Source of the DNA: Anaerolineae bacterium
GTDB taxonomy: Bacteria > Chloroflexota > Anaerolineae > S140-20
DNA length: 64,000 nt
Assembly (NCBI GenBank): GCA_027021705.1
Contig: JALUTT010000048.1
Span: forward strand, 32,001 to 96,000
Reading direction: 5' to 3'
Shown: in pieces, positions 41,891-60,818 of the stretch
How the letters are laid out: the number at the start of each line of letters is the position of its first letter
Numbering within the stretch: the stretch's first letter is position 1
Notes under the pieces: generated by a model
Seen by the model: only the letters and a program-made list of their open reading frames with translations
Database searches by the model: none
What the model was told of the DNA's origin: nothing
Position numbers and translations under genes: made by a program

Positions 41891-41949
41891 GAGGTAGGTG
41901 GCGGGGCGCAAGGGGCTAGTTGCAAGTTGCAAGGAGTAGGTGGCAAGTC
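41887..41949. repeat. Degenerate heptamer tandem repeat (GYAAGNN-like), 9 units
   Basis: gtaggag gtaggtg gcggggc gcaaggg gctagtt gcaagtt gcaagga gtaggtg gcaagtc. Confidence 0.65.
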
Positions 41950-42013
41950 GGGGGCGGGAGCCCCATGAGTTGTCGTTTTGCCGGGAGTTGTACAACAAAA
42001 GGAGGCGCGGAAA

Positions 42014-43543: not shown

Positions 43544-43561
43544 GCATAGGAGAACCAGAAT

Positions 43562-46500
43562 ATGAGGGAGAGATTAGTAGAAGCGCTAACGGTCCAACCA
43601 GATGACCTGTTGCGGATCCGGCCATTGCTGGAAGTTATGCTTAAAGGGTTAATTGTGGCTACAGCGGCAGGTACGGTGGTTTTCGTTGGGGCTGCCGTGA
43701 TAGGTCAGCGTGGGTTCTGGGTGCTCAGCGGGCTTAACCTGCTTATGCTGATCGTGATGATTGGCATAGGGAGGCTGAACCAGCGAGGGCATACCAATGC
43801 GGCCATCCATACTCTGCTAGCAGTGATTACCCTTTACGTCACTGTAGCATCACCGCCGGGTTTCCTAGTGGCTGGACCGGAGCTAGCAGTCTATGCCGTA
43901 CCGATTACTGCTGCGGGGTTGCTGCTTACACCAGCGGCTGCGGGCTTCTGGGCGGTGATCACCACGATAGCCGCCTTGGCTCGCATGATAGTAGTCACCC
44001 TGTTCCTCGATGTGGTGGTCAGTCCCATAGCCCTCACCCTAGGGGTCATCGTGCTTTATTTGCTGGCCCTCTCCACCTGGCTCTTCGCCCGTTCCCTTCA
44101 GCAGGCCAACCGGAACCTGCGCCGGCGGATCGGGCAGATCCAGACGGGGGCCGAGATCAGCCGGGTGGTCACGGCAGCCCTCGAGCCCGGCCTGATCCAA
44201 TGGCCGGCCGTCCAGTTGATCCAGACCGGCTTCGGTTACTACCACGTCGGCTTCTACGTCCTCGACCCTGAAGGGCGTTGGGCCGTCCTCACGGAGGCGG
44301 CCGGCGAAGCTGCCGATCGTATGAAGCAGGAAGAGCATCGCCTGCCCTTGGACGGCTCTACCGTCGTCGCCGCCGCCTTCGCCCAACGGGCCCGCCAGAT
44401 GCTCGTCCTCGGCGAGGAAGGGCCATACAGCCCCAACGGACGCCCTCTTCAGCCCAACGATCGCTTCCTACCCCAGACCCGGGCGGAGTTGGCGCTGCCC
44501 CTCCAGGTGGGGGAGCGGCTCCTGGGCGTGCTGGATGTGCACAGCACCCAGCCTCTCCCCTTCCCCGACGAGGAGATCGAGGCCCTGGAGGGCATCGTGG
44601 GGCAGGTCGCCGTGGCCCTGGAGAATGCCCACCTCTTCGAGGACCTTCACCAACGCCACCAGGAGCTGCGGGAACTCCATCAGCAGACGGAGCGCCGGGC
44701 TCGCTACCTGGAGGCTACCGCCGAGTTGGCCCGGGCGGTCAGTTCGCTGCTCGATCTGCAAGCTCTGCTGGATCGGGCGGTTAACCTCATCAGCGAGCGG
44801 TTCGGCTTCTACCACGCCGGTATCTTCCTGGTGGACGAGGCCGGCGAGTGGGCCGTGCTCCAGGCGGCCAACAGCGAGGGCGGACAGCGTATGTTGGCCC
44901 GGGGGCACAAGCTGCGCGTGGGTGAGCAAGGCATCGTCGGCTGGGTCACCCACGCCGGAGAACCCCGCATTGCCCTGGACGTGGGTGAGGATGCCGTTCA
45001 CTTCGACAATCCCGACCTGCCCAACACCCGCTCGGAGATGGCTCTCCCCCTCAGGGTGGGAGACCGGGTGATCGGAGCCCTGGACATCCAGAGCACCCGA
45101 GAGGCCGCCTTCAGCGAGGAAGACGTGGCGGTCCTCCAGACTTTGGCCGACCAGATCGCCATCGCTATCGAGAATGCCCGCCTCTTCCAAGAGACCCAGA
45201 GGGCCCTGGAGGAGGTGCAGACCCTGCACCGCTACTACCTGGCCCAGGCGTGGGAGCAGTTCACCCGGCAGCGCAGAGACCTCAGCGCGGAATACCGCCG
45301 CCTGGGCGTGCCCCCTCTGGAGAGAGCGTGGTCTCCCGAAATGGAGATAGCCCTGGCTCAGGAGCGCCCTGTGGTCTTGACAGACCTGGAAGCGGAGCTA
45401 CTGGGCGGGGATGGACAGGAGGGGAATCGGGACGACGGAACCGATGGTCGCTCTGCGCTGCCGGCCCGTTCTGTCCTAGCCGTCCCCATCAAGCTGCGCG
45501 GCGAGGTAATCGGTGTCCTGGACTTGCAGGCGACAGAGGAGTCCCGCCGCTGGACCGACGAAGAGGTGGCGATGGTCGCCGCCGTGGCCGACCAGATGGC
45601 CCTGGCTCTGGAGAACGCCCGGCTTCTGGAGGCCGAGCGGGATCAGCGCCAAGTCTCCGAAGCGCTGCGGGAGGCCGCCGTGGCCCTGAGCAGCACCCTG
45701 GAGTTCGACGATCTGGTCCAACGCATCCTGGAGCAGATCAGCCGGGTCGTCCCCGGCGATGCCAGCAACCTGATGCTCATCGAGGGAGACGAGGTGCGGG
45801 TCGTGGGGCGCCGGGGTTACGAGCACTTCCAGTTTGTGGACCTCCTGCGTGAGCGCCGGGTTCCTCGGGATACCCTCAACACCCTGCGCAAGATGGCAGA
45901 GACAGGCCGTCCCGTCGTCATCCCGGACACGGCTTCCGATCCCGACTGGCGTCTCCTACCCGGTTCGGAGTGGATCCGCTCTTACGTGGGAGCGCCCATC
46001 CAGGTTCGGGGGGAGATCATCGGCCTCCTGAACGTGGATAGTGCGACACCGGGCTTTTTCACCCAGGAGCACGCTGACCGACTGGCGGCTTTCGCTGCCC
46101 AGGCAGGCATCGCCCTTCAGAACGCCCGGCTCTTCGAAGAGACCCGACGACACGCCCGTGAGGTCCGCCAGCTCTACCAGTTGGGTATGGCCCTTAGCGC
46201 CACCCTGGACCTGGAAGAAGCGCTCCAGACGGTGGCCGATGGGGCTCGGGAACTCCTCGAGGCGTCCAGCGCGGCGGTCTACTACTGGGATGAAGGGACG
46301 CAGCGTTACACCTACCGCTTTAGCCTGGGGGAGACTCACCTCGATGCCGAGGGCCTTTTCCAGGAACCCCGCCCCGGTGGGATGACCGAGACGATCCATC
46401 GTACGGGCGAGCCTGTCCTGGTCGAAGACGTCCGTCTGGATCCCCGGGTTGCCTCTCACGTCGTAGAGGCGGGGGTCCGCTCCTTCGTCGGCGTCCCCAT

Positions 46501-48373
46501 CCAGGTGGGCGGGCGTCGCATCGGTGTGGTCTTCGCCAATGGAGAGCAGCCCGGTCAGTTTGGCGAGCACGAGCAGAACCTGCTCACCTTCCTGGCCAGC
46601 CAGGCGGCCATCGCCTTGCAAAATGCCCGTCTCTTCGAGGAAGTCCAGACCCGCGCCCGCCACGAGCACGCCTTGCGCGAGATCACCGCGGTCATCAACA
46701 CCAGCGAGAGTTTGGTGGAGGAACTCCCCGTCATCGCCGGACACCTCCGGCAGTTGGTGCCCGTGGACACCCTCGCCCTGACCATCTACGTACCGGGGGA
46801 GTCCGAGTACACCCTCTTCGCCGTGGAGGTGAGCGGGGAAAGGACTCCCTTTGCCCAGAGGGGTGCCCGACTCCCGGTAGAGGGCACCGGCCCTGGGTGG
46901 GTCCTCACCCACGGCGAGCCGTGGATAGACGACGATCTCCGCCAGCAGCTTTCCTTTGTCGAGGATGAGCACGTCCTTGCCCAGGGATTGCGCTCCCGGG
47001 CGATCCTTCCCCTCCGGGTCGGCGAACGGGTCATCGGCACCCTCAACCTTGCCAGCACCCAGCCCGGGGTGTTTACCGAAACCGATCTTCCTCCCCTGCG
47101 GCTGATCGCCGGTCAGATGGCCCTGGCCCTGGAGCGGGTCCGCCTCTTCGAGGAGACTCAGCAGCGGGCCCGAGATCTGGACAAGCTCTACCAGGCGACG
47201 CGGGTCATCAGCACTGAACTGGACTTGGAGCCGCTGGCGGAGAAGCTGGCAGAAGAGGCTCGGAATCTGGTGGAGGCCCATTACAGCGGCATCCTGATCT
47301 TCCATCCCAATCCGGACCAGCCGGTCTATTTCAAGACGGCCGGCGTGGACCTCGATCGCTTCCAGTTGTCGGGTCGGCCCGAGGGCAAAGGGGTGTTGGC
47401 CGCCATCCTCGAGGGGGAGGCGGTCCGGCTGGACGACATCTCGAAGCACCCCCGTTCCGTCGGTCTGCCGCCGGAGCACTTCCCCCTCAAGCGGCTGTTG
47501 GGCTTGCCTATCGTCTACCACGGTCAGGTGCGGGGCATCTTGTTGGCAGGACGTGATGCCAATGGTGCTCCTTTCACCGAGGCGGACTTCTCCTTGCTCC
47601 AGGCTCTGGCAGCTTCGGCGGCCGTCGCCGTGGAGAATGCTCGGCTCTTCCTCAAGACCCAGGAGGCGTTGGCGGAGACGGAGGTTCTCTACCGGGCCAG
47701 CCGGGCCATCGCTGTGGCCCAGACGCCCGAGGACGTGTTGCGGGCCTTCACCGATCACATCGTCACACCGGAGATTGGCCGTTGCGTCCTGGCCCTGATA
47801 GATCCTGGCAGCCCGCCGGACCAACGGGAAGTAGAGATCGTCGCTGCGTGGGAGCCGGGGGTGGAACGACCGGCTGTGGTTGGAAACCGCTGGAACGCTT
47901 CTCAGATCCCCTTAATAGACCGGATCGGCCAGGATCCTCTGGTCATCTCCGACGTGGAGACCGCCTCAGAGATGGACGAGGTCTCCCGCCACATCTTCCT
48001 AGACATCCTGGGGATTAGGGCGTTCATCGCCATCCCCATGCTGGTCGGTGAGCGGCTGCTGGGCTGGCTGCTGGTCGAATCCCTGGAGGGGCCTTACGAG
48101 TTCAGCGAGCGGGAGAGGCGGCTCTACGAGGCCCTGGCCGGACAGGCTGCCGTCGCTCTGGAGCGCCAGCGTCTCTTCGAAGAGGCTCAGAGGCGGGCTC
48201 GCCGCGAGCGGCTGATCCGGGAGATCACCACCAAGGTGCGTGCCGCCACCGATGTGGACACGATCCTGCAGACCGCCCTTCAGGAGATCAGCCAGGCGTT
48301 AGGGACCACCCACGCGGCGATCCGCTTGGGAGTCCAAAGCCCAGAGTTTGGAAATGGAGGCTCGGAGAGGTAG
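43562..48373 (+). CDS. Kinase-less receptor 10: ~6 TM plus about 8 GAF domains plus C-terminal tail
   Basis: Hydrophobic N-terminus; repeated ALENARL GAF ends; tail RARRERLIREITTKVRAATDVD; no output motif seen. Confidence 0.87.
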   Translation: MRERLVEALTVQPDDLLRIRPLLEVMLKGLIVATAAGTVVFVGAAVIGQRGFWVLSGLNLLMLIVMIGIGRLNQRGHTNAAIHTLLAVITLYVTVASPPGFLVAGPELAVYAVPITAAGLLLTPAAAGFWAVITTIAALARMIVVTLFLDVVVSPIALTLGVIVLYLLALSTWLFARSLQQANRNLRRRIGQIQTGAEISRVVTAALEPGLIQWPAVQLIQTGFGYYHVGFYVLDPEGRWAVLTEAAGEAADRMKQEEHRLPLDGSTVVAAAFAQRARQMLVLGEEGPYSPNGRPLQPNDRFLPQTRAELALPLQVGERLLGVLDVHSTQPLPFPDEEIEALEGIVGQVAVALENAHLFEDLHQRHQELRELHQQTERRARYLEATAELARAVSSLLDLQALLDRAVNLISERFGFYHAGIFLVDEAGEWAVLQAANSEGGQRMLARGHKLRVGEQGIVGWVTHAGEPRIALDVGEDAVHFDNPDLPNTRSEMALPLRVGDRVIGALDIQSTREAAFSEEDVAVLQTLADQIAIAIENARLFQETQRALEEVQTLHRYYLAQAWEQFTRQRRDLSAEYRRLGVPPLERAWSPEMEIALAQERPVVLTDLEAELLGGDGQEGNRDDGTDGRSALPARSVLAVPIKLRGEVIGVLDLQATEESRRWTDEEVAMVAAVADQMALALENARLLEAERDQRQVSEALREAAVALSSTLEFDDLVQRILEQISRVVPGDASNLMLIEGDEVRVVGRRGYEHFQFVDLLRERRVPRDTLNTLRKMAETGRPVVIPDTASDPDWRLLPGSEWIRSYVGAPIQVRGEIIGLLNVDSATPGFFTQEHADRLAAFAAQAGIALQNARLFEETRRHAREVRQLYQLGMALSATLDLEEALQTVADGARELLEASSAAVYYWDEGTQRYTYRFSLGETHLDAEGLFQEPRPGGMTETIHRTGEPVLVEDVRLDPRVASHVVEAGVRSFVGVPIQVGGRRIGVVFANGEQPGQFGEHEQNLLTFLASQAAIALQNARLFEEVQTRARHEHALREITAVINTSESLVEELPVIAGHLRQLVPVDTLALTIYVPGESEYTLFAVEVSGERTPFAQRGARLPVEGTGPGWVLTHGEPWIDDDLRQQLSFVEDEHVLAQGLRSRAILPLRVGERVIGTLNLASTQPGVFTETDLPPLRLIAGQMALALERVRLFEETQQRARDLDKLYQATRVISTELDLEPLAEKLAEEARNLVEAHYSGILIFHPNPDQPVYFKTAGVDLDRFQLSGRPEGKGVLAAILEGEAVRLDDISKHPRSVGLPPEHFPLKRLLGLPIVYHGQVRGILLAGRDANGAPFTEADFSLLQALAASAAVAVENARLFLKTQEALAETEVLYRASRAIAVAQTPEDVLRAFTDHIVTPEIGRCVLALIDPGSPPDQREVEIVAAWEPGVERPAVVGNRWNASQIPLIDRIGQDPLVISDVETASEMDEVSRHIFLDILGIRAFIAIPMLVGERLLGWLLVESLEGPYEFSERERRLYEALAGQAAVALERQRLFEEAQRRARRERLIREITTKVRAATDVDTILQTALQEISQALGTTHAAIRLGVQSPEFGNGGSER

Positions 48374-48454
48374 TCCCGGAGTCCTCGTCCTGGTGTGGTG
48401 AGCCGAGGACAAGAGTAGGAAGTTCAGAGTTCTGAGGTACAGGTGAGGGGAAAA

Positions 48455-51400
48455 ATGGCCGACTCAACCCACTCAGCCCACCCACAAGACCTCCTCGACC
48501 GGCTCCTGTCCATCGTCGCTGGGATAGACGAGGGGGAGCAGCGTGAGGCCCTGCAGCAGCCGTTGGAGGCGCTGCGGAAGGCGCTTGCCGTCTCCTCGGA
48601 TCGGAGCCGTCGCCTCTACGAGGCCAGTCGGGCGATCAGCCTGGCCGCCGATATGGCTGAGGTGGGACGGGCTCTGATGGACTTCATCGCGACCTGTGAC
48701 GTGGATGTGGGCCGGCTCTTTCTCTTCCGGGCGGATCCGTCTGGTGAGCCGGTTGAGATCGAGATGCGCGAGGGATGGAAGCGGAGCGGTGAGCCCTCTC
48801 AGGTTCCCTACGGCACCCGTTTCCCGCTGGCCGATTACCCTCTGCGTGAGGCTATGCAGCCTGACCAGGTCTTCATCTGCTCCGATGTGGGGACGGATCC
48901 CCGGTTGAATGAGACCATCCGGGCGATGATGCTCGCCTCCGAACTGCACTCCTTCATCATCGTCCCGATGACGGTGGAGAGGCGGTGGTTGGGTGCCATT
49001 CTCGTAGGACGGGAGGTCCCCTCCACGTATGATGAAGGGTTGGTCTACGCCCTCTGGACGCTGGCCGGACAGGCTGCGGCCACGCTGGAGAACCGCCAGC
49101 TCCTGGCCGACTTCCAAGGAACAGCCGAGCAGATGGTCCTGCTCAACCAAATCCTCCAGACGGCTACGACGACCCTAGACCTCCGGGAGGCCCTCGATTC
49201 CATTGCCCGACAGACGGCCCTGGCGCTGAACAGGATGTGCGGCATCTTTCTTCTCGAGGAAGATGGCGAGCACCTGCGGGTGGGCTGCTTGTGGGGACCC
49301 GATGGCCATACCCACACGTCTGAGGAGGCCCTCGTCTTCCCTCTCTCAGAGAATCCCGGTATGGAGGCAGCCGTTCGGGAGCAGAAGACCCAGGTCCTTG
49401 ACCAGGTTCAGACCCGTGCCCGGGGAACAGCCCGCCACCTGGCCCAACTCTCCCGGGCGGAGACGGCCGTCTACGCCCCCTTGCTGACCCGAGAGCGTGT
49501 GGTGGGGGTGCTGGAGGTCTCCGCCCCCGTCGGCCATCCCCCCTTCACGCCGGAGCAGATCGGCACGGTCTCCACCATTGCCCGCCAGATGGGTATCGTG
49601 GTGCAGAATGCTCGACTCTTCCAGGAAACCCAGGCCGCTCTGGAGGAGACAGACCTGCTCCTGGAGACCAGCCGGGCCCTGGCCCTCGCCCTGACCCCCC
49701 AGGAGGTGGCCGATCTCCTGGCAGAGCGCTTGATGGCCACAGGCGTTGACCGTTGTAGCGTGGTTCTCTGCGATACCTACGGAGAGGATGGGCTCCCTCA
49801 GTGGGCGGAGGTGATGGCCATCGGCGACGTGGACCCGGAGAGGCGAAAGCTGGGCCTGCACTACCGCTATCCCATCGAAACCTACCCTACGATACAGAAG
49901 TTCCTCCGTGCTCCAGAAGCCTTCGTGGTGACCGATGTGCGCACCGATCCCCGCCTCACCGAGGAGGAGCGAATCTATATGGAAAATATCGGGGGGGTGG
50001 CTTTCATCGCCGTCCCGATGGTGCGCCGGGGACAGGTCCTGGGCTACATCTTCGCCGAACACAGCCATCCCTATACCTTCAGTCAGCGGGAGCTTTCCCT
50101 GTACCAGGCGATGGCCGATCAGGCAGCCGTGACGCTGGCCAACATGCGTCTCTTCGAGCGGGTTCAGCAAGGGTGGCGCGAGACCGAGGTCCTCTATCAG
50201 GTTGGCCGCTCCTTGGTCGCTGCCTCTTCCTTGGAGGAACTGCTGGAGTGTGCGGCCCAACCGGCCATCGAGGCAGGGGCGTCGGCCGCCAGCCTCTACC
50301 TCTTCGACCCGAATGAGGCGGAGCAACCGGAGTGGGGCATCCTGGCCGCCCACTGGCAGCGCGAGGGTGATCCTCCCTTCCCCGTGGGTACTCGGCTCTA
50401 CTTGGCCGATTTCCCCTTCACCCAGCTCTTCCTGGCGGATCCCCAGACCCCTTACCTGATCGGGGATATGGAGGCGGCCGAGCAGGTGGATGAGACTACC
50501 CGGGATGTGGCCCTGCAACTGGGGGTGCGAGCGCTGGTTGTCATCCCCTTGGTGACCCGGGAGCGTCGGATTGGTATCCTGGCCATTCCCTGGGATGAGC
50601 CCCACCAATTCAGTGAGGAAGAGGAGCGGCTCTATCGGGCGCTGGGACCGTTGGCAGCGCCGGTCACGGAGAGCTTGCGCCTACTGGAGGACACACGGCG
50701 TCGGGCACTCCAGTTCCAGACCGTGACGGAGGTTGCCCAGGCGGCCAGTACCATCCTGAACCTGGATGAGTTGCTCTCCCAGTCGGTGGAGTTGATCAGG
50801 GAGCGCTTTGACCTCTACTATGCCGGTATCTTCCTGGTGGATGAATACGGGCAGTGGGCGGTGCTGCGGGCGGGCACCGGCGAGGCCGGCCGGGCGCAGA
50901 TCGAGGCCGGTCACCGGCTGGAGGTGGGGGGCAACTCGATGATCGGCTGGTGCACGGCCCACGGAAAGCCCCGGGTAGCCCTAGACGTGGGGAAGGAGGC
51001 CGTGCGCTTTGAGAACCCCTACCTGCCCGATACCCGCTCGGAGATGGCCCTGCCCCTCATCAGCCGGGGGCAGGTGATCGGTGCGATGACCATCCAGTCC
51101 ACCCAGGTCGCTGCCTTCACCGACGAGGATGTCACAATCCTCCAGGCTCTGGCCGACCAGTTGGCCGCGGCCATTCAGAATGCCCGTCTCTTCGAGCAGA
51201 CCCAGCAGGCCCTGCAGGAGGTCAGCCGGGTTCACCAGCGTTACATCCGTGAGGCCTGGGAGGAGTACACAGCCCATCGTCAGCGTCCGACAGGCTACTT
51301 CCTGGGCCCCGACGGCATCACGGCTGCCGACGTCTGGCGACCGGAGATGGCCTTGGCGGTGGAGCGGGAGGACCTGCTGATCCTCTCCGAGGCCGACGAC

Positions 51401-54400
51401 GAAGTAGTTGGCGGGAAGAACGGAGATGAACGCCCCAAGGCAGCCCTGGCTGTGCCCATTAAGCTGCGCGATCAGGTGATCGGGGCGCTGGACTTCTTCG
51501 AGCCCGATGAGGCCCGGGAATGGGATGAGGATGACATCGCCATCGTAGAGGCGGTGGTGGATCAGGTTGCCCAGGCTCTGGAGAGCGCCCGCCTCTTCGA
51601 GAAAACCCAGACCCAGGCCAGCCGGCTGGCCCTCCTGAACGAGATCACAGCCCGCCTGAGCACGGCCCTGGATCGGGATGAACTCTTCCGTATCTTGAGT
51701 CAGGAACTGGGCCGCATCCTTCCTTTCCACCAGCTCCACATCGCCCTCTACGACCCTCAGCGGGATTCCGAGCACTGCCGGCTGATCCCTCTAGGGAAGG
51801 AAGCCTTCCACGCGGTGCAGACCTTCCCCGTCGAGGATAGCCTGATGGGAGAGGTGTTGCAGAGCGGTCGTCCTCTGTTGTTGAAAGACCTCGCCCTCTC
51901 GTCGGAAGAGATGGGGTCGAACCACCAAGACCGCCGCTATCTCCTCCAGACGGGCGTTCGCTCGGCGATCTTCGTCCCCCTGGGAACCCATGGGCGCCAA
52001 CTAGGGGTGCTGAGCGTGGGCCATGCAGAGGCCGGCTTCTACACCCAGGATGACCTGGCCCTCTTCCAGCAGGTTGCTGCTCAGGTGGCCGTTGCCCACG
52101 AGAACGCCCGCCTCTTCCACGAGACGCGGCGTCGGGCCCGTCAGTTGCAGGACCTCTACGATGCCGGGCTTGCCCTCTCCTCCATCGCCTCGCTGGAGGA
52201 GGTGATGGAGCGGGTTGCTCAAGCGGCTCAGAAGCTGACCCAGGCCAGCCTGACCACGGTCTTCGTCTACGATGAGGACCTGGGTCGCTATCGTCGGGCC
52301 GCCGCGGCCGACGCGCCGGAGCGGCTGGCCTCCTCGCCGGTCATCTACCCCCGTCGGGGAGGCTTCACCGACAAGATCGCCCGCAGCGGTCGCCCCCTCG
52401 TCGTCCCCGATGTCGAGGCCGATCCCGACGTGAACCCGGGTGCTCTGGAGTCGGGGATGCACTCCCTGGTGGGAATTCCGATGCAGATGATGGGACAGGA
52501 GGCCATCGGGGTCATCTTCTGTGCCCATACCGAGAAGCATTACTTCACCGAGGAGCACGTGGAGACCCTCTCCTTCCTGGCCGTCCAGGCGGCGATCGCG
52601 CTGCAGAACGCCCGATCCTTCGCCCAAGTGGAACGCCGGCGGCTGCAACTGGAGACCGCGGCCGAGGTCGCCCGGGTGACCACCGCCGTTCTGGACCTGG
52701 ACGAGCTGCTGGAGCGGACGATCAGCCTGCTCCAAGAGCGGTTTGGCCTCTACTATGCGGGCATCTTCCTGCTGGACGAGACGGGGTCGTGGGCGGTGTT
52801 GCGGGCCGGAACCGGAGAGGCTGGTCGTCGGATGGTGGAGCGTGGACACCGGCTGCAGGTAGGCGGCAATTCGATGATCGGCTGGTGCACGGCCCATGGA
52901 GAGCCCCGCGTGGCCCTGGACGTGAGCAAGGAACGGGTGCGCTTCATCAACCCGCTGTTGCCCGACACCCGCTCGGAGATGGCCCTGCCCCTCATCAGCC
53001 GGGGGCGGGTGATCGGCGCGATGACCATCCAGTCCGATCAGACCGAGGCCTTCTCCCGGGCCGACGTCGCCACCATCCAACTGATGGCCGACCAGTTGGC
53101 CAACGCCATCGAGAACGTCCGGCTCTTCCAGGAGACCCAGACCAGCCTGGTGGAGACCGAGGCCCTCTATCGGGCCAGCCGGCGGGTGGGGGAGGCCCAG
53201 TCCATCGAAAGCGTCCTAGAAGGTGCGGCAGAGTTGGCCGAGGTTCTGATCCCGGAGGCCGGCAGCATCTCCATCAGCCTGATTACCCGCTGGGACGAGG
53301 CCGGAGAGCCGACGGCTGCCGACATTCACGTCCTCTCCCTGGGCACGGGCCAGCGGATCCCGCTGCCGACCCTCACCGATTTTCCCATCACCGATCGGGA
53401 GACGGCGAGGATGGTCCTGGGCGAGCCCGAAGCAGTCGTCATCTACGCCGATGCCGACGATCCCACCTGTTCTATGCCCGAGGAGGTGCGGGAGGTGATG
53501 CACAACAGCGGCACCCGGGGAATGGTCACGCTGGGCCTGCTCGCCCGAGGCCGCTCCTTGGGATTCCTCTCCTTCAGCAGTTCGGCGCCACTCACCGAGT
53601 TCCCGGAACGTCACGTCCGGCGTCTCCGCACCCTGGCCGACCAGATCGCGGTGACCCTGGACAACCTGCAGCTCTTCCGGCAGACTACGGAGGCGCTGGA
53701 AGAGACCCAGACCTACTATGACATCAGCCGGCAACTGCTGGAGGCCCAGACGGTGGAAGAGGTGCTGGCGGCTGCGCTGGCCTTTCTGCAGGAGCCGGAT
53801 GTGGACAGTGCCAGCATCTTCCTGGTGGGTGGACCGCCGGAGGCCCTATGGCTGGAGCGGGTTGCGGTCAAGGGCATTCGGGAGAGGACCGAAGCCCCGC
53901 TGGGCGATCGGATCCCGATGGACCTGTATGGACTAGATCGCCTGCTCGCTCCCGGTCGTACGGTTGTGGTCGAGGATGTGGCCCGCGATACCCGGATTAC
54001 GGAGCCGCTGCGGGAGATGTTGACAGAGTTGGGAAAGCGGGCCGTCGTCTTCGTGCCGATGCAGACGGGGCAGCAGCTGGTAGGGACTTTGCTGGTTGCC
54101 CAAAACTATCCCTACCGCTTCTCCAAACGTCAGATCCGGCTCTACGAGGTTGTGGCGGCCCAGACATCGGTAGCCTTGGAGAACCGGCGCCTGCTGGAGG
54201 AGACCCGACGGCGGGCCGTCCAGTTGGAGGCAGCGGCCAAGGTGGGGCGTTCGGCCACCTCCATCCTGGAGCGCGAGCAACTGCTGCCGGCCGTCGTCGA
54301 GTTGATCCGCGACCACTTCGGCTACTACCACGCTCAGATCTTCCTGATAGACGAGACGGGGCGGTGGGCGGAACTCCAGGCCAGCACCGGTGAGATCGGC

Positions 54401-56242
54401 AGGATATTGCTGGAGCGAGGACATGCTCTGGAGGTGGGCAGCGACTCGGTGATCGGCTGGGTGACCCGTTATGGGCAGCCCCGCGTCGCCCGCGTGGGCG
54501 AGGACCGGGTTCACTTCCGCAACGAACTCCTGCCTGATACCCGGGCCGAGTTGGCCATCCCTCTCATCCTGGGAGGCCGCGTCATCGGAGCCTTGGATGT
54601 GCAGAGCACCGACCCCGAAGCTTTCGGCGAGGACGAGGTCGCGGTGCTTCAACTCGTGGCGGACCAGATCACCATCGCCATCGAGAACGCTCGCCTCTAC
54701 GACGAGCAGAAGCGGGTGGCCGAGAAGCTGCGCGAGGTGGATCGGCTGAAGTCTCAGTTCCTGGCCAATATGTCCCACGAGTTGCGGACACCGCTGAACT
54801 CCATCATCGGCTTCTCGCGGGTGATCCTCAAGGGCATTGATGGTCCCCTCACCGACCTGCAGCGGCAAGACCTGGAAGCGATTCACAACAGTGGTCAACA
54901 CCTGCTAGGGTTGATCAACGACATCCTGGACCTCTCCAAGATCGAGGCAGGTCGGATGGAGCTGGTCTTCGAGGAGGTCAACCTCTACGACATCATCGAA
55001 GGCGTGATGGCGACGGCCAAGGCGCTGGTCAAGGACAAGTCCATCGAGCTGCGCAAGGAAGTTGCCGAGGACCTGCCGACCATTATCGCCGACGGCAAGC
55101 GGATCCGTCAGGTGATGCTCAACCTGCTCTCCAATGCGGCCAAGTTCACCGAAGAGGGATACATCTGCTTGCGAGCCCAGGCCGACGACCGCTACGTGAC
55201 CATCAGCATCGAGGACACCGGGATCGGTATCCCGCCGGAGAAGCACGAGGAGATCTTCCAGGAGTTTACCCAGGTGGATGCCTCTACGACACGCCGTTAC
55301 GCGGGAACGGGCCTGGGGCTGCCCATCAGCCGCCACTTCGTCGAGATGCACGGCGGGCGGATCTGGGTGGAGAGCGAACTGGGGAAGGGTTCGACCTTCT
55401 ACTTCACGCTGCCCATCCGTGGACCCAAGCAGGAGGAGGAGCCTTCTGAGGGCGAGGGTGTGGCCGTAGAGGTGGGGAAGAAGCTGATCCTGGTGGTAGA
55501 TGACGACGAGAGCGTCATCACCCTCTACAAGCGCTATCTGGACAAGCGTGATTACCAGGTCGTTGGCCTGACAGAGAGTCAACAGGCACTCCAGTGGGCG
55601 ATGAACCTGAAGCCCTATGCCATCATCCTGGACATCCTAATGCCGCGCAAGGATGGCTGGAGTGTAATCCAGGAATTGAAGTCCACGCCGGAGACCCGGG
55701 ACATTCCCGTGATCATCTGCAGCATCGTGGGTGATACCGGTCGGGGCTTCAGCTTGGGGGCTGCTGACTACTTGGTCAAGCCGATTATGGAAGACGAACT
55801 GCTCAATGCGCTGTCCCGGCTAGACGGACAAGCCCAAGAGAAAGTCCTGATCATTGACGACAACCCTGACGACATCCAGTTGCTGCGCCGCATCCTGGAG
55901 GAGGGGCAGGGGTGCATGGTGCTGGAGGCCAGCAACGGTGCTGACGGCATCGCCCTGATCCAGGCCGAGCGTCCTAATCTGGTCATCTTGGACTTGATGA
56001 TGCCGGAGGTGGATGGCTTCGCCGTGTTGGAGGCGGTTAAGGCCAATCCCTCTACTCGGGATATCCCTATCATCGTGGTGACGGCGAAGGACCTCTCCGA
56101 AGAGGATCGCCAACGGCTTGCAGGACGCACCATCTCTCTGTTGCAGAAAGGGATCTTTCAGCAGGAGGAGCTGCTCGAGGATGTGGCTGAGGCTTTGGCC
56201 CGGTTGACGGCTAACCAATCCCGGTCCCAAGAGCAGGCGTAG
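48455..56242 (+). CDS. Giant cytoplasmic hybrid histidine kinase (about a dozen GAF domains, HisKA, HATPase, two REC)
   Basis: FLANMSHELRTPLNSIIGF, NLLSNAAKFT, DTGIGI, GTGLGLPI; REC1 ILDILMP and REC2 ILDLMMP. Confidence 0.93.
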   Translation: MADSTHSAHPQDLLDRLLSIVAGIDEGEQREALQQPLEALRKALAVSSDRSRRLYEASRAISLAADMAEVGRALMDFIATCDVDVGRLFLFRADPSGEPVEIEMREGWKRSGEPSQVPYGTRFPLADYPLREAMQPDQVFICSDVGTDPRLNETIRAMMLASELHSFIIVPMTVERRWLGAILVGREVPSTYDEGLVYALWTLAGQAAATLENRQLLADFQGTAEQMVLLNQILQTATTTLDLREALDSIARQTALALNRMCGIFLLEEDGEHLRVGCLWGPDGHTHTSEEALVFPLSENPGMEAAVREQKTQVLDQVQTRARGTARHLAQLSRAETAVYAPLLTRERVVGVLEVSAPVGHPPFTPEQIGTVSTIARQMGIVVQNARLFQETQAALEETDLLLETSRALALALTPQEVADLLAERLMATGVDRCSVVLCDTYGEDGLPQWAEVMAIGDVDPERRKLGLHYRYPIETYPTIQKFLRAPEAFVVTDVRTDPRLTEEERIYMENIGGVAFIAVPMVRRGQVLGYIFAEHSHPYTFSQRELSLYQAMADQAAVTLANMRLFERVQQGWRETEVLYQVGRSLVAASSLEELLECAAQPAIEAGASAASLYLFDPNEAEQPEWGILAAHWQREGDPPFPVGTRLYLADFPFTQLFLADPQTPYLIGDMEAAEQVDETTRDVALQLGVRALVVIPLVTRERRIGILAIPWDEPHQFSEEEERLYRALGPLAAPVTESLRLLEDTRRRALQFQTVTEVAQAASTILNLDELLSQSVELIRERFDLYYAGIFLVDEYGQWAVLRAGTGEAGRAQIEAGHRLEVGGNSMIGWCTAHGKPRVALDVGKEAVRFENPYLPDTRSEMALPLISRGQVIGAMTIQSTQVAAFTDEDVTILQALADQLAAAIQNARLFEQTQQALQEVSRVHQRYIREAWEEYTAHRQRPTGYFLGPDGITAADVWRPEMALAVEREDLLILSEADDEVVGGKNGDERPKAALAVPIKLRDQVIGALDFFEPDEAREWDEDDIAIVEAVVDQVAQALESARLFEKTQTQASRLALLNEITARLSTALDRDELFRILSQELGRILPFHQLHIALYDPQRDSEHCRLIPLGKEAFHAVQTFPVEDSLMGEVLQSGRPLLLKDLALSSEEMGSNHQDRRYLLQTGVRSAIFVPLGTHGRQLGVLSVGHAEAGFYTQDDLALFQQVAAQVAVAHENARLFHETRRRARQLQDLYDAGLALSSIASLEEVMERVAQAAQKLTQASLTTVFVYDEDLGRYRRAAAADAPERLASSPVIYPRRGGFTDKIARSGRPLVVPDVEADPDVNPGALESGMHSLVGIPMQMMGQEAIGVIFCAHTEKHYFTEEHVETLSFLAVQAAIALQNARSFAQVERRRLQLETAAEVARVTTAVLDLDELLERTISLLQERFGLYYAGIFLLDETGSWAVLRAGTGEAGRRMVERGHRLQVGGNSMIGWCTAHGEPRVALDVSKERVRFINPLLPDTRSEMALPLISRGRVIGAMTIQSDQTEAFSRADVATIQLMADQLANAIENVRLFQETQTSLVETEALYRASRRVGEAQSIESVLEGAAELAEVLIPEAGSISISLITRWDEAGEPTAADIHVLSLGTGQRIPLPTLTDFPITDRETARMVLGEPEAVVIYADADDPTCSMPEEVREVMHNSGTRGMVTLGLLARGRSLGFLSFSSSAPLTEFPERHVRRLRTLADQIAVTLDNLQLFRQTTEALEETQTYYDISRQLLEAQTVEEVLAAALAFLQEPDVDSASIFLVGGPPEALWLERVAVKGIRERTEAPLGDRIPMDLYGLDRLLAPGRTVVVEDVARDTRITEPLREMLTELGKRAVVFVPMQTGQQLVGTLLVAQNYPYRFSKRQIRLYEVVAAQTSVALENRRLLEETRRRAVQLEAAAKVGRSATSILEREQLLPAVVELIRDHFGYYHAQIFLIDETGRWAELQASTGEIGRILLERGHALEVGSDSVIGWVTRYGQPRVARVGEDRVHFRNELLPDTRAELAIPLILGGRVIGALDVQSTDPEAFGEDEVAVLQLVADQITIAIENARLYDEQKRVAEKLREVDRLKSQFLANMSHELRTPLNSIIGFSRVILKGIDGPLTDLQRQDLEAIHNSGQHLLGLINDILDLSKIEAGRMELVFEEVNLYDIIEGVMATAKALVKDKSIELRKEVAEDLPTIIADGKRIRQVMLNLLSNAAKFTEEGYICLRAQADDRYVTISIEDTGIGIPPEKHEEIFQEFTQVDASTTRRYAGTGLGLPISRHFVEMHGGRIWVESELGKGSTFYFTLPIRGPKQEEEPSEGEGVAVEVGKKLILVVDDDESVITLYKRYLDKRDYQVVGLTESQQALQWAMNLKPYAIILDILMPRKDGWSVIQELKSTPETRDIPVIICSIVGDTGRGFSLGAADYLVKPIMEDELLNALSRLDGQAQEKVLIIDDNPDDIQLLRRILEEGQGCMVLEASNGADGIALIQAERPNLVILDLMMPEVDGFAVLEAVKANPSTRDIPIIVVTAKDLSEEDRQRLAGRTISLLQKGIFQQEELLEDVAEALARLTANQSRSQEQA

Positions 56243-56244
56243 GT

Positions 56245-56300
56245 CCCCGCCGAGGTGGGAAAGGATAGCATCGTTGTGCTTCCACCCCGCCGAGGTGGGA
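56245..56300 (+). repeat. 16-bp direct repeat CCCCGCCGAGGTGGGA x2, 40-bp period
   Basis: Exact copies at 56245-56260 and 56285-56300; each can form a CCCGCC-GA-GGTGGG mini-hairpin. Confidence 0.8.
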
Positions 56301-56362
56301 TCTACCGGCAACTGGACCTTATCCCCCAAAAGTGCGCGCGGAAGGAAGGAGTCAAAGAAGCC

Positions 56363-58027
56363 ATGGGCAAGAATCACTTTTGGCTGAAGTGCCCGCAATG
56401 CGGCCATCGTTTCCTCTACAAAGGGCTCGTAACAGCCTGCCCTCGTTGCAGCCACGCCTGGCTGGACGTCGAGTACGATTACGACGCTCTGGCCCCCCGT
56501 CTGCGCCAACTGTTGGAGAGCCGCCCCTTTACCAGCATGTGGCGGTATCGGGAACTGCTCCCGGTGCTCCACGACGAGAACATCGTGACGATGGGGGAAG
56601 GCGGAACACCGCTGCTCCACAGCCAGCATCTGGGAATGATGCTAGGGCATCCCTACATCTACGTGAAGGACGAACGGCAGGGACCGACGGGCTCCTTTAA
56701 GGATCGTCAGGCTTCCCTGGCTATCTCCCTTATGAAGGAGAACGGGATCACAGAGGGTGTATTGGCTTCGACGGGCAATGTTGCCATCTCCTACTCCGCC
56801 TACTCAGCCCTGGCCGGCATCAAGCTCTGGGCCTTTGTCACCAGCACGGTGCCGGCCGACAAGATGCGCGAGGTTGCCCTCTATGGCACGGAGGTGATCA
56901 AGGTTACGGCGACCTACGATCAGACCAAGGAAGTGGCGGCCCGCTTTGCTCAGCACAAAGGGCTCTACCTGGATCGAGGCATCCGCGCTTTTGCCAGCCG
57001 ACAAAGTATGAAGACCATCGCCTACGAGATCGCTGAGCAGTTGGGCTGGCGGGCCCCCGACTGGTACATCCAGGCCGTCAGCGGGGGCCTCGGCCCTGTC
57101 GGCGTCTGGCAGGGCTTCGAGGAACTCTACCGGATGGGGCTGATCCCCAACCTGCCCAAGCTGGCCAGCATCCAGGTGACCGGCTGCGCCCCGATGGTCC
57201 ATTCCTTCCGCAAGGGGCTGGCCGAGGTGGAGCCCGTGCTCAACCCGCAGACCCTCATCGCTACGGTGGCGACGGGTAATCCAGGACCGGCCTATCCCTT
57301 CCTGCGGCGCGTCGTGCTGGAGCACGGAGGGGCCTTCGAAGAGGTCACCGACGAAGAAGCGTTCCGGGCGATGCGGGTGATGGCCCGAATGGAAGGGCTT
57401 TCTATGGAACCGGCTGCCGCTATGGCTTTCGCCGGTCTCTTCAAGCTGATCCAGAAGGGGATCATCCGTAAGGATGAGATCGTCGTCGTCAACTGCTCGG
57501 GTCACACCTTTCCCGTGGAGAAGCACCTGCTGGACGAGGAGTGGGTCCACAGCCTGGAACTGCCCTCGGAAATGGTCGCCGAGCCAGGGCCGGCTGTTCT
57601 AAAGGAAGAGGGGCTTCTGGCCTCGCTGGAACGGCTGGACGACCGGGTGCGGAGTGTGGCCATCATTGACGATGAGCCCGATGCCGTCCGCCTGCTGCGG
57701 CGGATCATCCAGGCCAAAGGCGGCTACCAGATCTACGAAGCCTATGATGGTCGCCAGGGCCTCCAGCTCATCCGCGAGAAGCGGCCTGACCTGGTGCTGC
57801 TGGACCTGATGATGCCGGGGATGGACGGCTTTGCCGTCCTGACGGCGATGAAGGAGGACCCTCAGATCGCGACCATCCCGGTGATCGTCATCACGGCCAA
57901 GGACCTGACCACTCAGGAACGGCGTTGGTTAAGCGGGAAGGTGGAGTCCCTGCTGCAGAAAGGATCCTACATGGACCTGGATGCCCTGGATGCGCTGGTT
58001 GGCGAGCTCTCGACGGCGGTAGGCTGA
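56363..58027 (+). CDS. Threonine-synthase-like PLP enzyme fused to a C-terminal receiver domain
   Basis: CxxC...CxxC, SMWRYRELLP, MGEGGTPL, PTGSFKDR, ASTGN, SGGLG; then IIDDEPD...PDLVLLDLMMP...VITAK. Confidence 0.9.
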   Translation: MGKNHFWLKCPQCGHRFLYKGLVTACPRCSHAWLDVEYDYDALAPRLRQLLESRPFTSMWRYRELLPVLHDENIVTMGEGGTPLLHSQHLGMMLGHPYIYVKDERQGPTGSFKDRQASLAISLMKENGITEGVLASTGNVAISYSAYSALAGIKLWAFVTSTVPADKMREVALYGTEVIKVTATYDQTKEVAARFAQHKGLYLDRGIRAFASRQSMKTIAYEIAEQLGWRAPDWYIQAVSGGLGPVGVWQGFEELYRMGLIPNLPKLASIQVTGCAPMVHSFRKGLAEVEPVLNPQTLIATVATGNPGPAYPFLRRVVLEHGGAFEEVTDEEAFRAMRVMARMEGLSMEPAAAMAFAGLFKLIQKGIIRKDEIVVVNCSGHTFPVEKHLLDEEWVHSLELPSEMVAEPGPAVLKEEGLLASLERLDDRVRSVAIIDDEPDAVRLLRRIIQAKGGYQIYEAYDGRQGLQLIREKRPDLVLLDLMMPGMDGFAVLTAMKEDPQIATIPVIVITAKDLTTQERRWLSGKVESLLQKGSYMDLDALDALVGELSTAVG

Positions 58028-58053
58028 GCCCGGAGAGACGGCACGGTAGAACG

Positions 58054-58137
58054 CGGGGTAGTGGCTCATCTCCATCGGACAGTCAGCGGGGTTGGTTCCC
58101 CCGGCCGATGGGATGGGCCGACTACCCCGTTGTTCTT
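58054..58137 (+). terminator. Long GC-rich hairpin ending the signalling cluster, possible terminator
   Basis: CGGGGTAGT-GGCTCATCTCCATCGG...CCGATGGGATGGGCCG-ACTACCCCG followed by TTGTTCTT. Confidence 0.5.
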
Positions 58138-58140
58138 GCC

Positions 58141-58169
58141 TTGACACTCCTCGCTTCTTCCCTTACAAT
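58141..58169 (+). promoter_or_regulatory. sigma70-type promoter of the R-M operon
   Basis: TTGACA-17 bp-TACAAT. Confidence 0.8.
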
Positions 58170-58220
58170 TCCATCGGCTGCAGGGAGCCCTTCCAGGGCC
58201 GATGAAGCAGGAGGTTCCTA

Positions 58221-59573
58221 GTGTCTACCGTGATTCAACGGTTTGCGGAACAATCAGCTACCCAGGGTGCAACCCAAGCCCGTGAGGCGCTTGAGGCACG
58301 TTATCTCCCCTACTTTGAGGAACGGCTACGCTTGCGTCAGTTGGTTACCTATGTGCCCAATAAAACTGCGCCCATTCATCGGTGGTTCCAGTACAAAGAG
58401 GGTTTCTCTTTCCGGCTTGTCGAGCTCTTTCTACGCGAGTTCAAGGCGGACCCGGACCGCTATCGGGTCTTTGATCCCTTCGTCGGTTGCGGCACAACCC
58501 CTTTGGTTGCCAAGCAGATGGGCTTCGGAGCGTGGGGTATTGACATCCTGCCGGTAGCCGTTTTCGTCGCCCGGGTGAAGCTCCGTGGCTCAGAGATGTA
58601 CGATCTGTCCCGCTTGCGATCGGAGATCGAGCGGCTGTTGTCCACGCCTTTCCATCCCCCTGCTCTCTCTGCCCCCCAAGACATACAGATTATCCGGTTA
58701 GCCTACGACCCTGCGATCCTTGAAGAGATTCTCTTTTTCAAGGAGGAAATCCTGCGGGTTGAAGATGAGACGCTCCGGGAGTTCCTGCTGCTGGGGCTTA
58801 TGAGCATTCTTGAGAAGGTGAGTTACACCAGCAAAGATGGTCAGTATCTGCGACTACGGCGGGATAAGGAGATACCCGCCGTGCGGGATGTCCTGCGCTC
58901 TCAGTTGGAGATGATGTACGATGATCTGGCCGGCCGACCAGCGCAATTGGAATTCCCCGGCTTTAGGGTGGGAAGGGCTGACGGTCGTGGTGGTAAACGA
59001 TGTTACGTCGCTCAAGCGGATGCTCGCTCCTTTGCCGATGCATTTGACGACTATGCCGACATCATTATCACCTCTCCGCCCTACCTCAATCGCTACGATT
59101 ACAGCCGCATCTACAGCTTGGAGTTGTGCTTACAGTTTGTCAATGAGTTTGAGGAATTAAAGCGGGTGCGTCATAGCCTTTTGCGATCCCACATTGAGTC
59201 CCGCAAACCGCCGACCGACGATGTCCATCACCCGGCTTTGGTGGAGATACTGGACAACTTGGCAGGACAGGACCTGAACAACCCGCGTATCCCGGTGATG
59301 ATCAAAGGGTACTTTGAAGATATGAACCAGGTACTGGGGCAACTGGCTCAGGTATGCCGCTCGGGGGCACGGGTGGCGTTGGTCGTCGCCAATGCTCGGT
59401 TCCACGGCGAGCTCATCCCCGTTGACCTCTTGCTCTCTGATTTGGCGAGGGAGAACGGATTTGAGGTCGAGCGCGTCATCATCACACGCTACAAGGGCAA
59501 CTCCAGCCAGCAGATGGGACGTTTCGGTCGCGTGGCAGTGCGAGAGAGCATCCTCATTTGGAGGCGAGCTTAG
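58221..59573 (+). CDS. Site-specific DNA methyltransferase, N4-cytosine type
   Basis: PIHRWFQYKEGFS, motif I FDPFVGCGTT before motif IV TSPPY; AGGAGG RBS. Confidence 0.9.
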   Translation: MSTVIQRFAEQSATQGATQAREALEARYLPYFEERLRLRQLVTYVPNKTAPIHRWFQYKEGFSFRLVELFLREFKADPDRYRVFDPFVGCGTTPLVAKQMGFGAWGIDILPVAVFVARVKLRGSEMYDLSRLRSEIERLLSTPFHPPALSAPQDIQIIRLAYDPAILEEILFFKEEILRVEDETLREFLLLGLMSILEKVSYTSKDGQYLRLRRDKEIPAVRDVLRSQLEMMYDDLAGRPAQLEFPGFRVGRADGRGGKRCYVAQADARSFADAFDDYADIIITSPPYLNRYDYSRIYSLELCLQFVNEFEELKRVRHSLLRSHIESRKPPTDDVHHPALVEILDNLAGQDLNNPRIPVMIKGYFEDMNQVLGQLAQVCRSGARVALVVANARFHGELIPVDLLLSDLARENGFEVERVIITRYKGNSSQQMGRFGRVAVRESILIWRRA

Positions 59574-59576
59574 ACG

Positions 59577-60818
59577 ATGGCTCGACGTCGCCACAGGAAG
59601 CGGATTGCTGAGCAGCAAACCGGCTATCTGGCAGAGCAACCGCTGCCATCCTTTGCCAGTACCCCCGACGAGATCCAGCGTGCGGTAGAGCGCAACTCCA
59701 TCAAGCGTGGCCTTTTCTTCATCCAAAACCTGGTGAGCCTGAATTTCTCCGCCCTCATCCGGCGCGTTGAGCAGCTCGCCCGGGAGTACGATAAAGAGGA
59801 ATGGGCCGAGAAGGCGTCTTGGCTCTGGATTGAGACCGATGCCCTGAAGGCACTGGACGCCTGTCAGCCCCCTGTGCCCTACCCCTGCTACTTCTGCACG
59901 CCTGATATCCTGATCCAGCATCCAGAGCTCGTGATGTACTATCGCAACGTGGCGATGGTCTCGCGAAAGGTGATGAACGACATGGGGCTGAGCACTAGCA
60001 TGTATGAGGCTGGTCAGGTGCCACCCCCAGACGTCGCGCTCGATCTGGCCCGGCATTTCAACCGCATGATCAGTGCCCTGGTGGTCACCAACCCCGTGAC
60101 GCCTCGGCGTCACCTGGAGATGGCCTACGCCAATCTGGGCGCAAGCTTCGATGGTTCCTGGCGCAACGAGGTAGGCAGACTGGCCTATGTTGAGGTCATC
60201 ACGCCTCTGCTGCTCCACCTGCACAGTCTGGGCCATCTGCACAGCGTGGTCTACACCCTCAAGGGGCCGGTCTTCGCGTCCGGCGGTGAGACTCTCCATT
60301 CCCGTGCGTCTCAAGAGTTGATCGTGGACGAGCAGACCGATCTGGAGGTAGCGCTGAGGCATCTGGAGGAGCAGCGGGTGGTATACCGGGAGGTCCGGCT
60401 GCGGAACGGGAACCGCCTTCTCCTAAATCGCCAAATCACCTGGTACGGTGCCGATGGCGAAGCCTACCGGATCGGCCCCGATTTGCTCTCGTCGGGCGAC
60501 GGGGCAGACATCTTGTGGGGAGGCGAATTGAAGGGCGGAGCTGACCCCGCCGGCTCGGATGAGCACTGGAAGACCGCGACGCGAACTTTCGAGCGGATCC
60601 TGTTGGCCTGCGAACGCACAGGTCGTCCAAAGCCACCTCTTTCATTCATTGCGACCATTCTGGTCGAGCGGGTGGCACGCGAGGCTGCCGACTGGTTGAA
60701 AGAGGGTAAGTTGGTCTCGGTGTACAACCTCACACAAATCGCCGAGGATCCTGCCAAACAGCAGCAGTTCCTGAATGACCTCACCACGTTCCTTGGCTAT
60801 CCGGCCCCCGCCGGATAG
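59577..60818 (+). CDS. Type II restriction endonuclease (XcyI / AvaI-BsoBI-like)
   Basis: Starts 3 bp after the MTase; GSWRNEVG, PDLL, GELKGGADPAGSDEHWKTA. Confidence 0.8.
   Translation: MARRRHRKRIAEQQTGYLAEQPLPSFASTPDEIQRAVERNSIKRGLFFIQNLVSLNFSALIRRVEQLAREYDKEEWAEKASWLWIETDALKALDACQPPVPYPCYFCTPDILIQHPELVMYYRNVAMVSRKVMNDMGLSTSMYEAGQVPPPDVALDLARHFNRMISALVVTNPVTPRRHLEMAYANLGASFDGSWRNEVGRLAYVEVITPLLLHLHSLGHLHSVVYTLKGPVFASGGETLHSRASQELIVDEQTDLEVALRHLEEQRVVYREVRLRNGNRLLLNRQITWYGADGEAYRIGPDLLSSGDGADILWGGELKGGADPAGSDEHWKTATRTFERILLACERTGRPKPPLSFIATILVERVAREAADWLKEGKLVSVYNLTQIAEDPAKQQQFLNDLTTFLGYPAPAG

Follow-up and report, generated by a model that had tools for sequence, protein, structure and literature searches.

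Transcription, second messengers and chemotaxis enzymes are established targets of two-component systems, and several response regulators have enzymatic outputs, among them the methylesterase CheB, the diguanylate cyclases PleD and WspR and the HD-GYP protein RpfG, in which phosphorylation of the receiver domain (REC) relieves inhibition or drives dimerisation. Here we describe a gene in a 64,000 nt stretch of DNA from an Anaerolineae bacterium (GCA_027021705.1, contig JALUTT010000048.1, positions 32,001-96,000, forward strand; the whole of this stretch is called the window below) that encodes a threonine-synthase-like (TS-like), pyridoxal-phosphate (PLP) enzyme fused to a REC. Like the regulators just named it joins a phosphorylatable REC to an enzyme and is encoded beside a kinase, but its putative output is a PLP amino-acid enzyme and its REC is C-terminal where theirs is N-terminal. 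The reading we favour, with moderate confidence, is that the protein is a response regulator with the PLP enzyme as its output, so that a signalling pathway probably exerts direct control over an amino-acid reaction. A TS-like output with a C-terminal REC would be new among response regulators with enzymatic outputs.

The layout has partial precedents outside two-component signalling. C-terminal regulatory domains switch activity in other fold-type II PLP enzymes; in biosynthetic threonine deaminase IlvA and cystathionine beta-synthase, as here, a PALP domain is followed by a C-terminal module that tunes activity, but those modules bind small ligands, whereas the module here is a putative kinase-fed phosphorylation switch. 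PLP enzymes encoded beside sensor kinases and response regulators are also familiar from CqsA/CqsS and LqsA/LqsS/LqsR. CqsA and LqsA, however, are fold-type I enzymes with known products and lack a fused REC, in contrast to the fold-type II, REC-fused protein of the window. No description of a PALP-REC or threonine-synthase-REC protein was found in the literature searched, subscription journals being mostly outside that search.

The fusion gene and its family

The fusion gene is real and conserved across Anaerolineae. A homologue search gave 7971 matches at E ≤ 0.001 among 8000 candidates scored, of which the best 120 are listed; among the matches listed, 120 of 120 carry both PF00291 and PF00072, at lengths of 507-614 aa and identities of 62-97%, and the PALP plus REC architecture first noticed in the window is thus shared by every one of them. 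Those that bear a name in their source are called 'threonine synthase', 'hypothetical protein' or 'pyridoxal-phosphate dependent enzyme'; NCBI names, present for a few, assign them to Anaerolineae or Chloroflexi metagenome-assembled genomes. In a sample of the class, 118 of 401 genomes match at E ≤ 1e-90 (84 among the 274 of high quality; 63 of 216 genera are represented, and the total takes in one unpublished genome, G388). Relaxing the threshold to E ≤ 1e-60 raises the count to 207 of 401 but also admits plain TS-like paralogues. A phylum-wide sample gave matches at 1e-110 in 40 of 401 genomes, 8 of them outside the class, and a contig scan, dominated by the generic REC pattern, held one full-length relative (L006) among its 80 loci. 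The original prediction had called fusions of REC to metabolic enzymes uncommon; this agrees with the literature searched, but inside this one class the fusion is common.

Two runs of another study yielded contigs spanning 55600-57817 and 56480-58200, with 13 and 21 base differences and 0 indels. Coming from a different study, these contigs give evidence for the PALP-REC junction that does not depend on the likely source run. Within the open reading frame (ORF), 27 of the 28 changes, which are distributed across both domains, are synonymous, and the fusion frame is therefore under purifying selection. A sequencing or assembly artefact, which would have undone the original prediction, is rejected on the combined evidence of the architecture shared by all listed homologues, the spread across class genomes, the indel-free contigs of the second study and the synonymous variants.

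For six genomes (G107, G161, G214, G306, G375 and G384) the match to the query is split in two pieces near residues 225-235 within one stop-free frame. In G107, G161, G214, G306 and G384 the family consensus accounts for the split by some 20 additional residues inserted behind the AEQL helix. The G375 pieces (5-227 and 225-548) abut directly, a pattern better matched by a small local rearrangement than by an insertion.

The open frame on the + strand runs over 56255-58027 and would give 590 aa counted from a GTG. Since homologues align from residues 2-9 of the 554-aa form, the ATG at 56363 is the likely start; it is preceded by the ribosome-binding site (RBS) GGAAGGAG, 8-15 nt upstream, and on both grounds the GTG at 56255 is the less likely start. 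The frame and start originally proposed are thereby borne out. Pfam PALP (PF00291) covers residues 75-378 (E 3.4e-64; 217.4 bits against a gathering cut-off of 35; profile positions 1-294 of 295), and Response_reg (PF00072) covers residues 432-534 (E 3.7e-22; 79 bits against 30.2).

Residue conservation was counted over an alignment of 42 fusion proteins. The four zinc-ribbon cysteines and K113 are each kept in 42 of 42, as are S136, G138 and N139 of the ASTGN loop (residues 135-139), with T137 in 41. The REC is complete by sequence, having the acidic pair D436/D437, D481, T511 and K533, and across the alignment D/E436, D437 and K533 are each found in 41 of 42 and D481 and T/S511 in all 42. 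Every part named at the outset, namely the SFKDR lysine, the zinc ribbon and a C-terminal REC with acidic pair, phospho-Asp and Thr, is therefore present and kept in 41-42 of 42 proteins. An AlphaFold2 model of the fusion has a mean predicted local distance difference test score (pLDDT) of 81.1 and a predicted template modelling score of 0.77, with a confident PLP domain and pLDDT below 50 in the linker (382-414) and the REC tail (528-554). Coordinates of the fusion gene, its parts and the main neighbouring features are collected in Table 1.

Table 1. The fusion gene, its parts and neighbouring features in the window (residue numbers refer to the 554-aa form).
Feature	Position	Strand	Basis
8-GAF protein, 1603 aa, without kinase domain, same sensor gene row	43562..48373	+	Pfam
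Hybrid histidine kinase, 2599 aa: 11-12 GAF stretches, HisKA, HATPase_c, two REC; putative phosphodonor	48443..56242	+	Pfam
120-nt spacer, kinase stop to fusion start, holds the RBS	56243..56362	+	
Fusion gene, 554 aa plus stop: zinc ribbon / TS-like PLP domain / linker / REC	56363..58027	+	ORF, RBS, Pfam
N-terminal four-cysteine zinc ribbon, C10-x2-C13 ... C26-x2-C29	56390..56449	+	each Cys kept in 42/42
Fold-type II PLP domain, residues 75-378	56585..57496	+	Pfam PALP; AlphaFold2 confident; best fold matches are threonine synthases
PLP lysine K113 codon (SFKDR, residues 111-115)	56699-56701	+	
Interdomain linker, residues 383-429, with conserved EEGLLxSLExLD before the REC	57509..57649	+	low pLDDT; family consensus
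Receiver domain, residues 430-536	57650..57970	+	Pfam Response_reg, conserved residues
Putative phospho-acceptor D481 codon	57803-57805	+	
Restriction-modification pair: methylase (N6_N4_Mtase) and BsoBI-like endonuclease	58221-60818	+	Pfam

Relation of the enzyme to threonine synthase

The closest described enzymes are the class I threonine synthases (ThrC). They supply the best sequence matches, with E values from 1.5e-49 (2zsj) to 5.2e-43, and the best Foldseek matches, from 4.8e-26 (2zsj) to 1.5e-24; the zinc-ribbon cysteate synthase CapA2 (9k3c) is close behind in the fold comparison at 2.7e-24, and serine racemase and threonine deaminases lie at about 1e-17 to 1e-16. A full-length PALP match together with the matching fold places the enzyme among the fold-type II PLP enzymes. 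Set against the class I structures from Aquifex (2ZSJ), Thermus (1UIM/1V7C), M. tuberculosis (2D1F) and B. subtilis (6CGQ/6NMX), the fusion has the same fold, a clear similarity of sequence, and the SFKDR and ASTGN motifs that it shares with threonine synthases; it differs in its zinc ribbon, its C-terminal REC, several replaced motifs, scores below the family cut-offs and its place in a separate clade. Zinc-ribbon TS-like enzymes such as the PRK08197 family and cysteate synthase (TIGR03844; CapA2, 9K3C) also combine a zinc ribbon with a TS-like PLP domain, but the fusion scores below both cut-offs and alone has the REC.

These likenesses raise the question of whether the protein is a genuine threonine synthase isoenzyme under two-component control, such that threonine supply would follow the signal. 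The top sequence and fold matches speak for it, as do the name 'threonine synthase' given to relatives by their sources and the score for TIGR00260, which at 163.8 against a cut-off of 167.1 falls short by 3.3 bits only. Yet every curated cut-off is missed: PRK08197, the best NCBIfam match (residues 7-379), is scored at 262.5 against 303, PRK05638 at 181.4 against 421 and cysteate synthase TIGR03844 at 120.1 against 324.9.

The motifs common to two solved threonine synthases and to the genome's own enzyme are also replaced. With 2zsj, 1uim and the genome's own ThrC (contig C145) as references, the N-S-x-N-P-x-R-x-E-G-Q-K-T block is replaced in the fusion by DRGIRAFASRQSMKT, and the PVGNAGN stretch with its GNAGN loop by AVSGGLG (SGGLG). 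In Thermus thermophilus ThrC the phosphate of O-phosphohomoserine is held by what we take to be N154, S155, R160 and N188, the numbers coming from counting along the alignment. Basic residues do persist near the lost motif, with R or K at position 208 in 39 of 42 fusions and at 213 in 33 of 42, and could be counted on the side of threonine synthesis. KDERxxPTxSFKDRQA, LDxG, E(S/A)MKT, SGGxGP, TGxPGxxY and GHT are common to the fusion clade and to the few, rare stand-alone relatives, whose clusters are mostly singletons, and since they share them the replacements belong to the family and not to a single protein. Invariance specific to the clade is seen at R105, Q116, D204, Y311 and H381.

A quick maximum-likelihood tree of 48 rows gives the same separation. 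Fusions and their rare stand-alone kin make up one half, and the other comprises the remaining zinc-ribbon TS-like proteins along with canonical ThrC, each side with a Shimodaira-Hasegawa-like approximate likelihood-ratio support (SH-aLRT) of 100; within the first half, 14 fusion rows group with the stand-alone P0129 in a clade supported at 97. The genome already holds three further members of the TS family. A canonical thrC is present on contig C145 (302.5 bits to TIGR00260). Contig C20 carries a true PRK08197 member (L003; 617 bits, with motifs SFKARG and EPYRLEGKKT and on the opposite half of the tree), and contig C107 another zinc-ribbon TS-like gene (L002; 203.5 bits to TIGR00260). Because these three other genes, the canonical thrC included, sit in the same genome, we regard the fusion as a specialised paralogue and not as the housekeeping ThrC; that one genome has four TS-family genes suggests roles beyond threonine synthesis for several of them. 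That the fusion was found in under a third of the sampled class genomes also argues against a role in threonine supply.

We conclude that the fusion enzyme is probably not a threonine synthase, and rate a threonine synthase isoenzyme under two-component control as very improbable. The caution in the original prediction, that the activity need not be threonine synthesis, was well placed in view of the missed cut-offs and the replaced phosphate-site motifs, and the separate housekeeping thrC whose presence it had left to be looked for does exist. The routine annotation of the fusion family as 'threonine synthase' is, on this evidence, probably wrong.

The adjoining kinase and the role of the receiver

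Gene context was compared, using a simple ORF picker, in stretches of about 20 kb surrounding the fusion gene in 40 loci of other genomes, and in 23 metagenome loci. Five of the genome loci (L119, L127, L137, L141 and L149) in which the picker did not recover the fusion gene were left out of the counts, and the 52 usable loci comprise 36 genomic ones, the window included, and 16 metagenomic ones. Upstream counts refer to the 45 loci that have 1500 nt or more of upstream sequence, downstream counts to the 43 that have 2500 nt or more downstream. A same-strand histidine kinase is the immediate upstream gene in 37 of 45 loci. Two REC are found in 15 of these 37 kinases, one in 9 and none in 13, and because those 13 carry no REC themselves the fusion is the receiver encoded next to the kinase. 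Among the 36 genome loci, a kinase core homologous to that of the window sits directly upstream in 30, at 31-76% identity, and the gaps between kinase and fusion are mostly -28 to +132 nt. The fusion protein is thus, by gene neighbourhood, a likely partner or output of the upstream kinase, much as first proposed.

The fusion REC is also a close copy of a domain of that kinase. Linker and REC together are 51% identical to the last REC of the window's kinase over 123 aa (E 5e-34), against 30% for its first REC, and the EEGLLxSLExLD stretch occurs ahead of the kinase's last REC as well; the likeness noticed originally therefore takes in the linker.

Downstream, 23 of 43 loci have an EamA-family transporter (drug/metabolite transporter, DMT) within three genes of the fusion, in both orientations. 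The same three-gene interval holds a REC-HisKA-HATPase protein of about 420 aa in 14 of 43 and a single-domain REC in 6 of 43. When compared with models of amino-acid and carboxylate exporters the EamA transporter gave weak matches, below the cut-offs. The EamA ortholog of the window's genome lies on contig C97 among unrelated genes and is 65% identical to the fusion-linked EamA of the closest relative.

On the favoured reading, the upstream multi-GAF kinase would pass a phosphoryl group to D481 of the fusion REC, with the kinase's own terminal REC competing for the same group. Phosphorylation would alter REC packing or dimerisation and so switch the PLP domain on or off. The reaction would most likely be a beta/gamma elimination or replacement on an amino-acid substrate other than O-phosphohomoserine, and in most relatives the co-encoded EamA carrier would move the substrate or product across the membrane. 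Elimination or deamination chemistry in ThrC paralogues has a precedent in Microcystis, where a divergent ThrC paralogue accompanying a canonical copy is shown to act as a threonine deaminase (PMC12172450). That protein belongs to a cyanobacterial lineage and has no REC.

The design of C-terminal control also fits the wider family, because related zinc-ribbon TS-like proteins carry LeuA, PadR or REC domains at the same end. Such add-ons are a LeuA allosteric domain in 4 representatives, PadR in 1, and two REC in P0123, P0125, L142 and L145. The representatives concerned, on the canonical side of the tree, are P0179, P0189, P0191, P0211 and P0272, with a C-terminal LeuA_dimer (about 620 aa) or PadR (499 aa).

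Several other gene arrangements in the collection deserve mention. At L142 (3713-13262, genome G070) a TPR-GAF kinase, a PALP-REC-REC protein of 703 aa, a PRK08197-type enzyme (SFKARG) and a TPR-PAS-GAF kinase follow one another, placing two different TS-family enzymes inside one signalling cluster. P0143, a single metagenomic protein of 492 aa, has HATPase_c followed by PALP and is a candidate only. A kinase-PALP-REC single chain was not confirmed, the 1296-aa frame at L143 having no Pfam domain in its first ~600 aa.

A number of points weigh against the favoured reading. The gene directly upstream is not a kinase in 8 of 45 loci, and 20 of 43, the window included, have no EamA gene nearby. 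Because the counted loci belong to related organisms, they do not amount to independent events. PLP domains that only sense ligands, such as those of GabR/MocR, likewise retain a conserved PLP lysine. Finally, the model shows no confident contact between REC and PALP, and the linker is long and predicted to be disordered. These last features would suit a constitutive enzyme whose REC is a decoy, or a localisation tag tying the enzyme to the kinase complex; a passive tag, however, would have no need of the phosphorylation residues that are kept in 41-42 of 42 fusions, and we give this arrangement hardly any weight, a shade less even than threonine synthesis.

The sensor-only PLP domains lead to a further possibility, in which the PLP domain is the input. 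Binding of an amino acid or other metabolite would then tune REC phosphorylation, and the protein would serve as a tunable phosphate sink or as a branch in the kinase network. The C-terminal position of the REC, as in hybrid kinases and CheV-type adaptors and unlike classical regulators, speaks for this arrangement; the close resemblance to the kinase's terminal REC also suits it, the further REC-kinase and single-REC genes downstream suggest a multi-branch relay, and the related zinc-ribbon TS-like protein fused to a PadR DNA-binding domain recalls the use of PLP domains as sensors. Against it, the fusion is the only receiver beside the 13 REC-less kinases. KDER, SFKDRQA, ASTGN, SGGxGP, TGxPG and GHT are invariant or nearly so, a degree of conservation that far exceeds what PLP binding asks for, and the recurrent EamA transporter suggests a flux of metabolite. 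We therefore consider an input role unlikely, if worth keeping in mind, and retain the reading of the PLP enzyme as output.

Surrounding genes and implications

The 120-nt spacer between kinase and fusion contains two identical 16-mers, CCCCGCCGAGGTGGGA, at 56245-56260 and 56285-56300, 40 nt apart. It folds into a long hairpin modestly better than shuffled sequences do (z -2.16), and no Rfam match, terminator-like site or terminator-like T run was found in it. In relatives the kinase and fusion genes often overlap by 4 nt, in different frames. In the window, six consecutive + strand genes (starts 38663, 40934, 41978, 43562, 48443 and 56363; span 38663-58027) lie in one reading frame. Because there are several in-frame stops in the spacers this shared frame looks like chance (about 1 in 243), and one giant read-through protein is rejected on account of those stops and of the genes' own RBS-like sites in the spacers.

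The sensor gene row upstream is preceded by a gene for a Peripla_BP_6 solute-binding protein (37385-38659). Next come, within 38663-41890, a dCache-HAMP-GAF-GAF protein of 756 aa with no output domain and, right after its stop and in the same frame, an ORF of 318 aa that has no Pfam or NCBIfam match. A 521-aa protein in the middle of the row (41978-43543) gives a partial match of 60 bits to the C-terminal domain of squalene-hopene cyclase. Elsewhere, in L117 (4633-5965), L118, L125, L152 and L155, a Methyltransf_19 gene (PF04672) sits between two kinases upstream of the fusion, accompanied in some of these loci by a small ORF that matches no family. Other loci repeatedly contain ParA-like ATPases and NMT1/THI5-like binding proteins.

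Directly downstream of the fusion the window departs from its relatives. The restriction-modification pair is probably an inserted cassette, because it occupies the place of the relatives' REC-kinase and/or EamA genes. Its stretch has a G+C content of 0.573 against about 0.62-0.68 around it, and a near-consensus promoter-like site, TTGACA-17-TACAAT (58141-58169; 11 of 12 matches), serves as the pair's own putative promoter.

Should REC control of the PLP amino-acid enzyme be direct, it would amount to a further class of output for two-component systems, one that leads from sensing to metabolism without gene regulation. That a single soluble protein carries both the putative switch and the enzyme makes for a clean test system. 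The recurring EamA transporter hints at a metabolite or signal linked to the fusion enzyme, and at its most speculative the association of kinase, PLP-REC enzyme and EamA carrier may be imagined as a self-contained signal factory, in which a sensed cue is turned into an amino-acid-derived intercellular signal that is exported among filamentous Anaerolineae, with the REC-kinases closing a feedback loop. We regard this extension as distinctly improbable; if true, it would represent a new kind of autoinducer system, with a TS-like enzyme being itself the response regulator. Anaerolineae are abundant in sediments, vents and wastewater sludge and their signalling is almost unstudied, and the fusion family described here is widespread among them.

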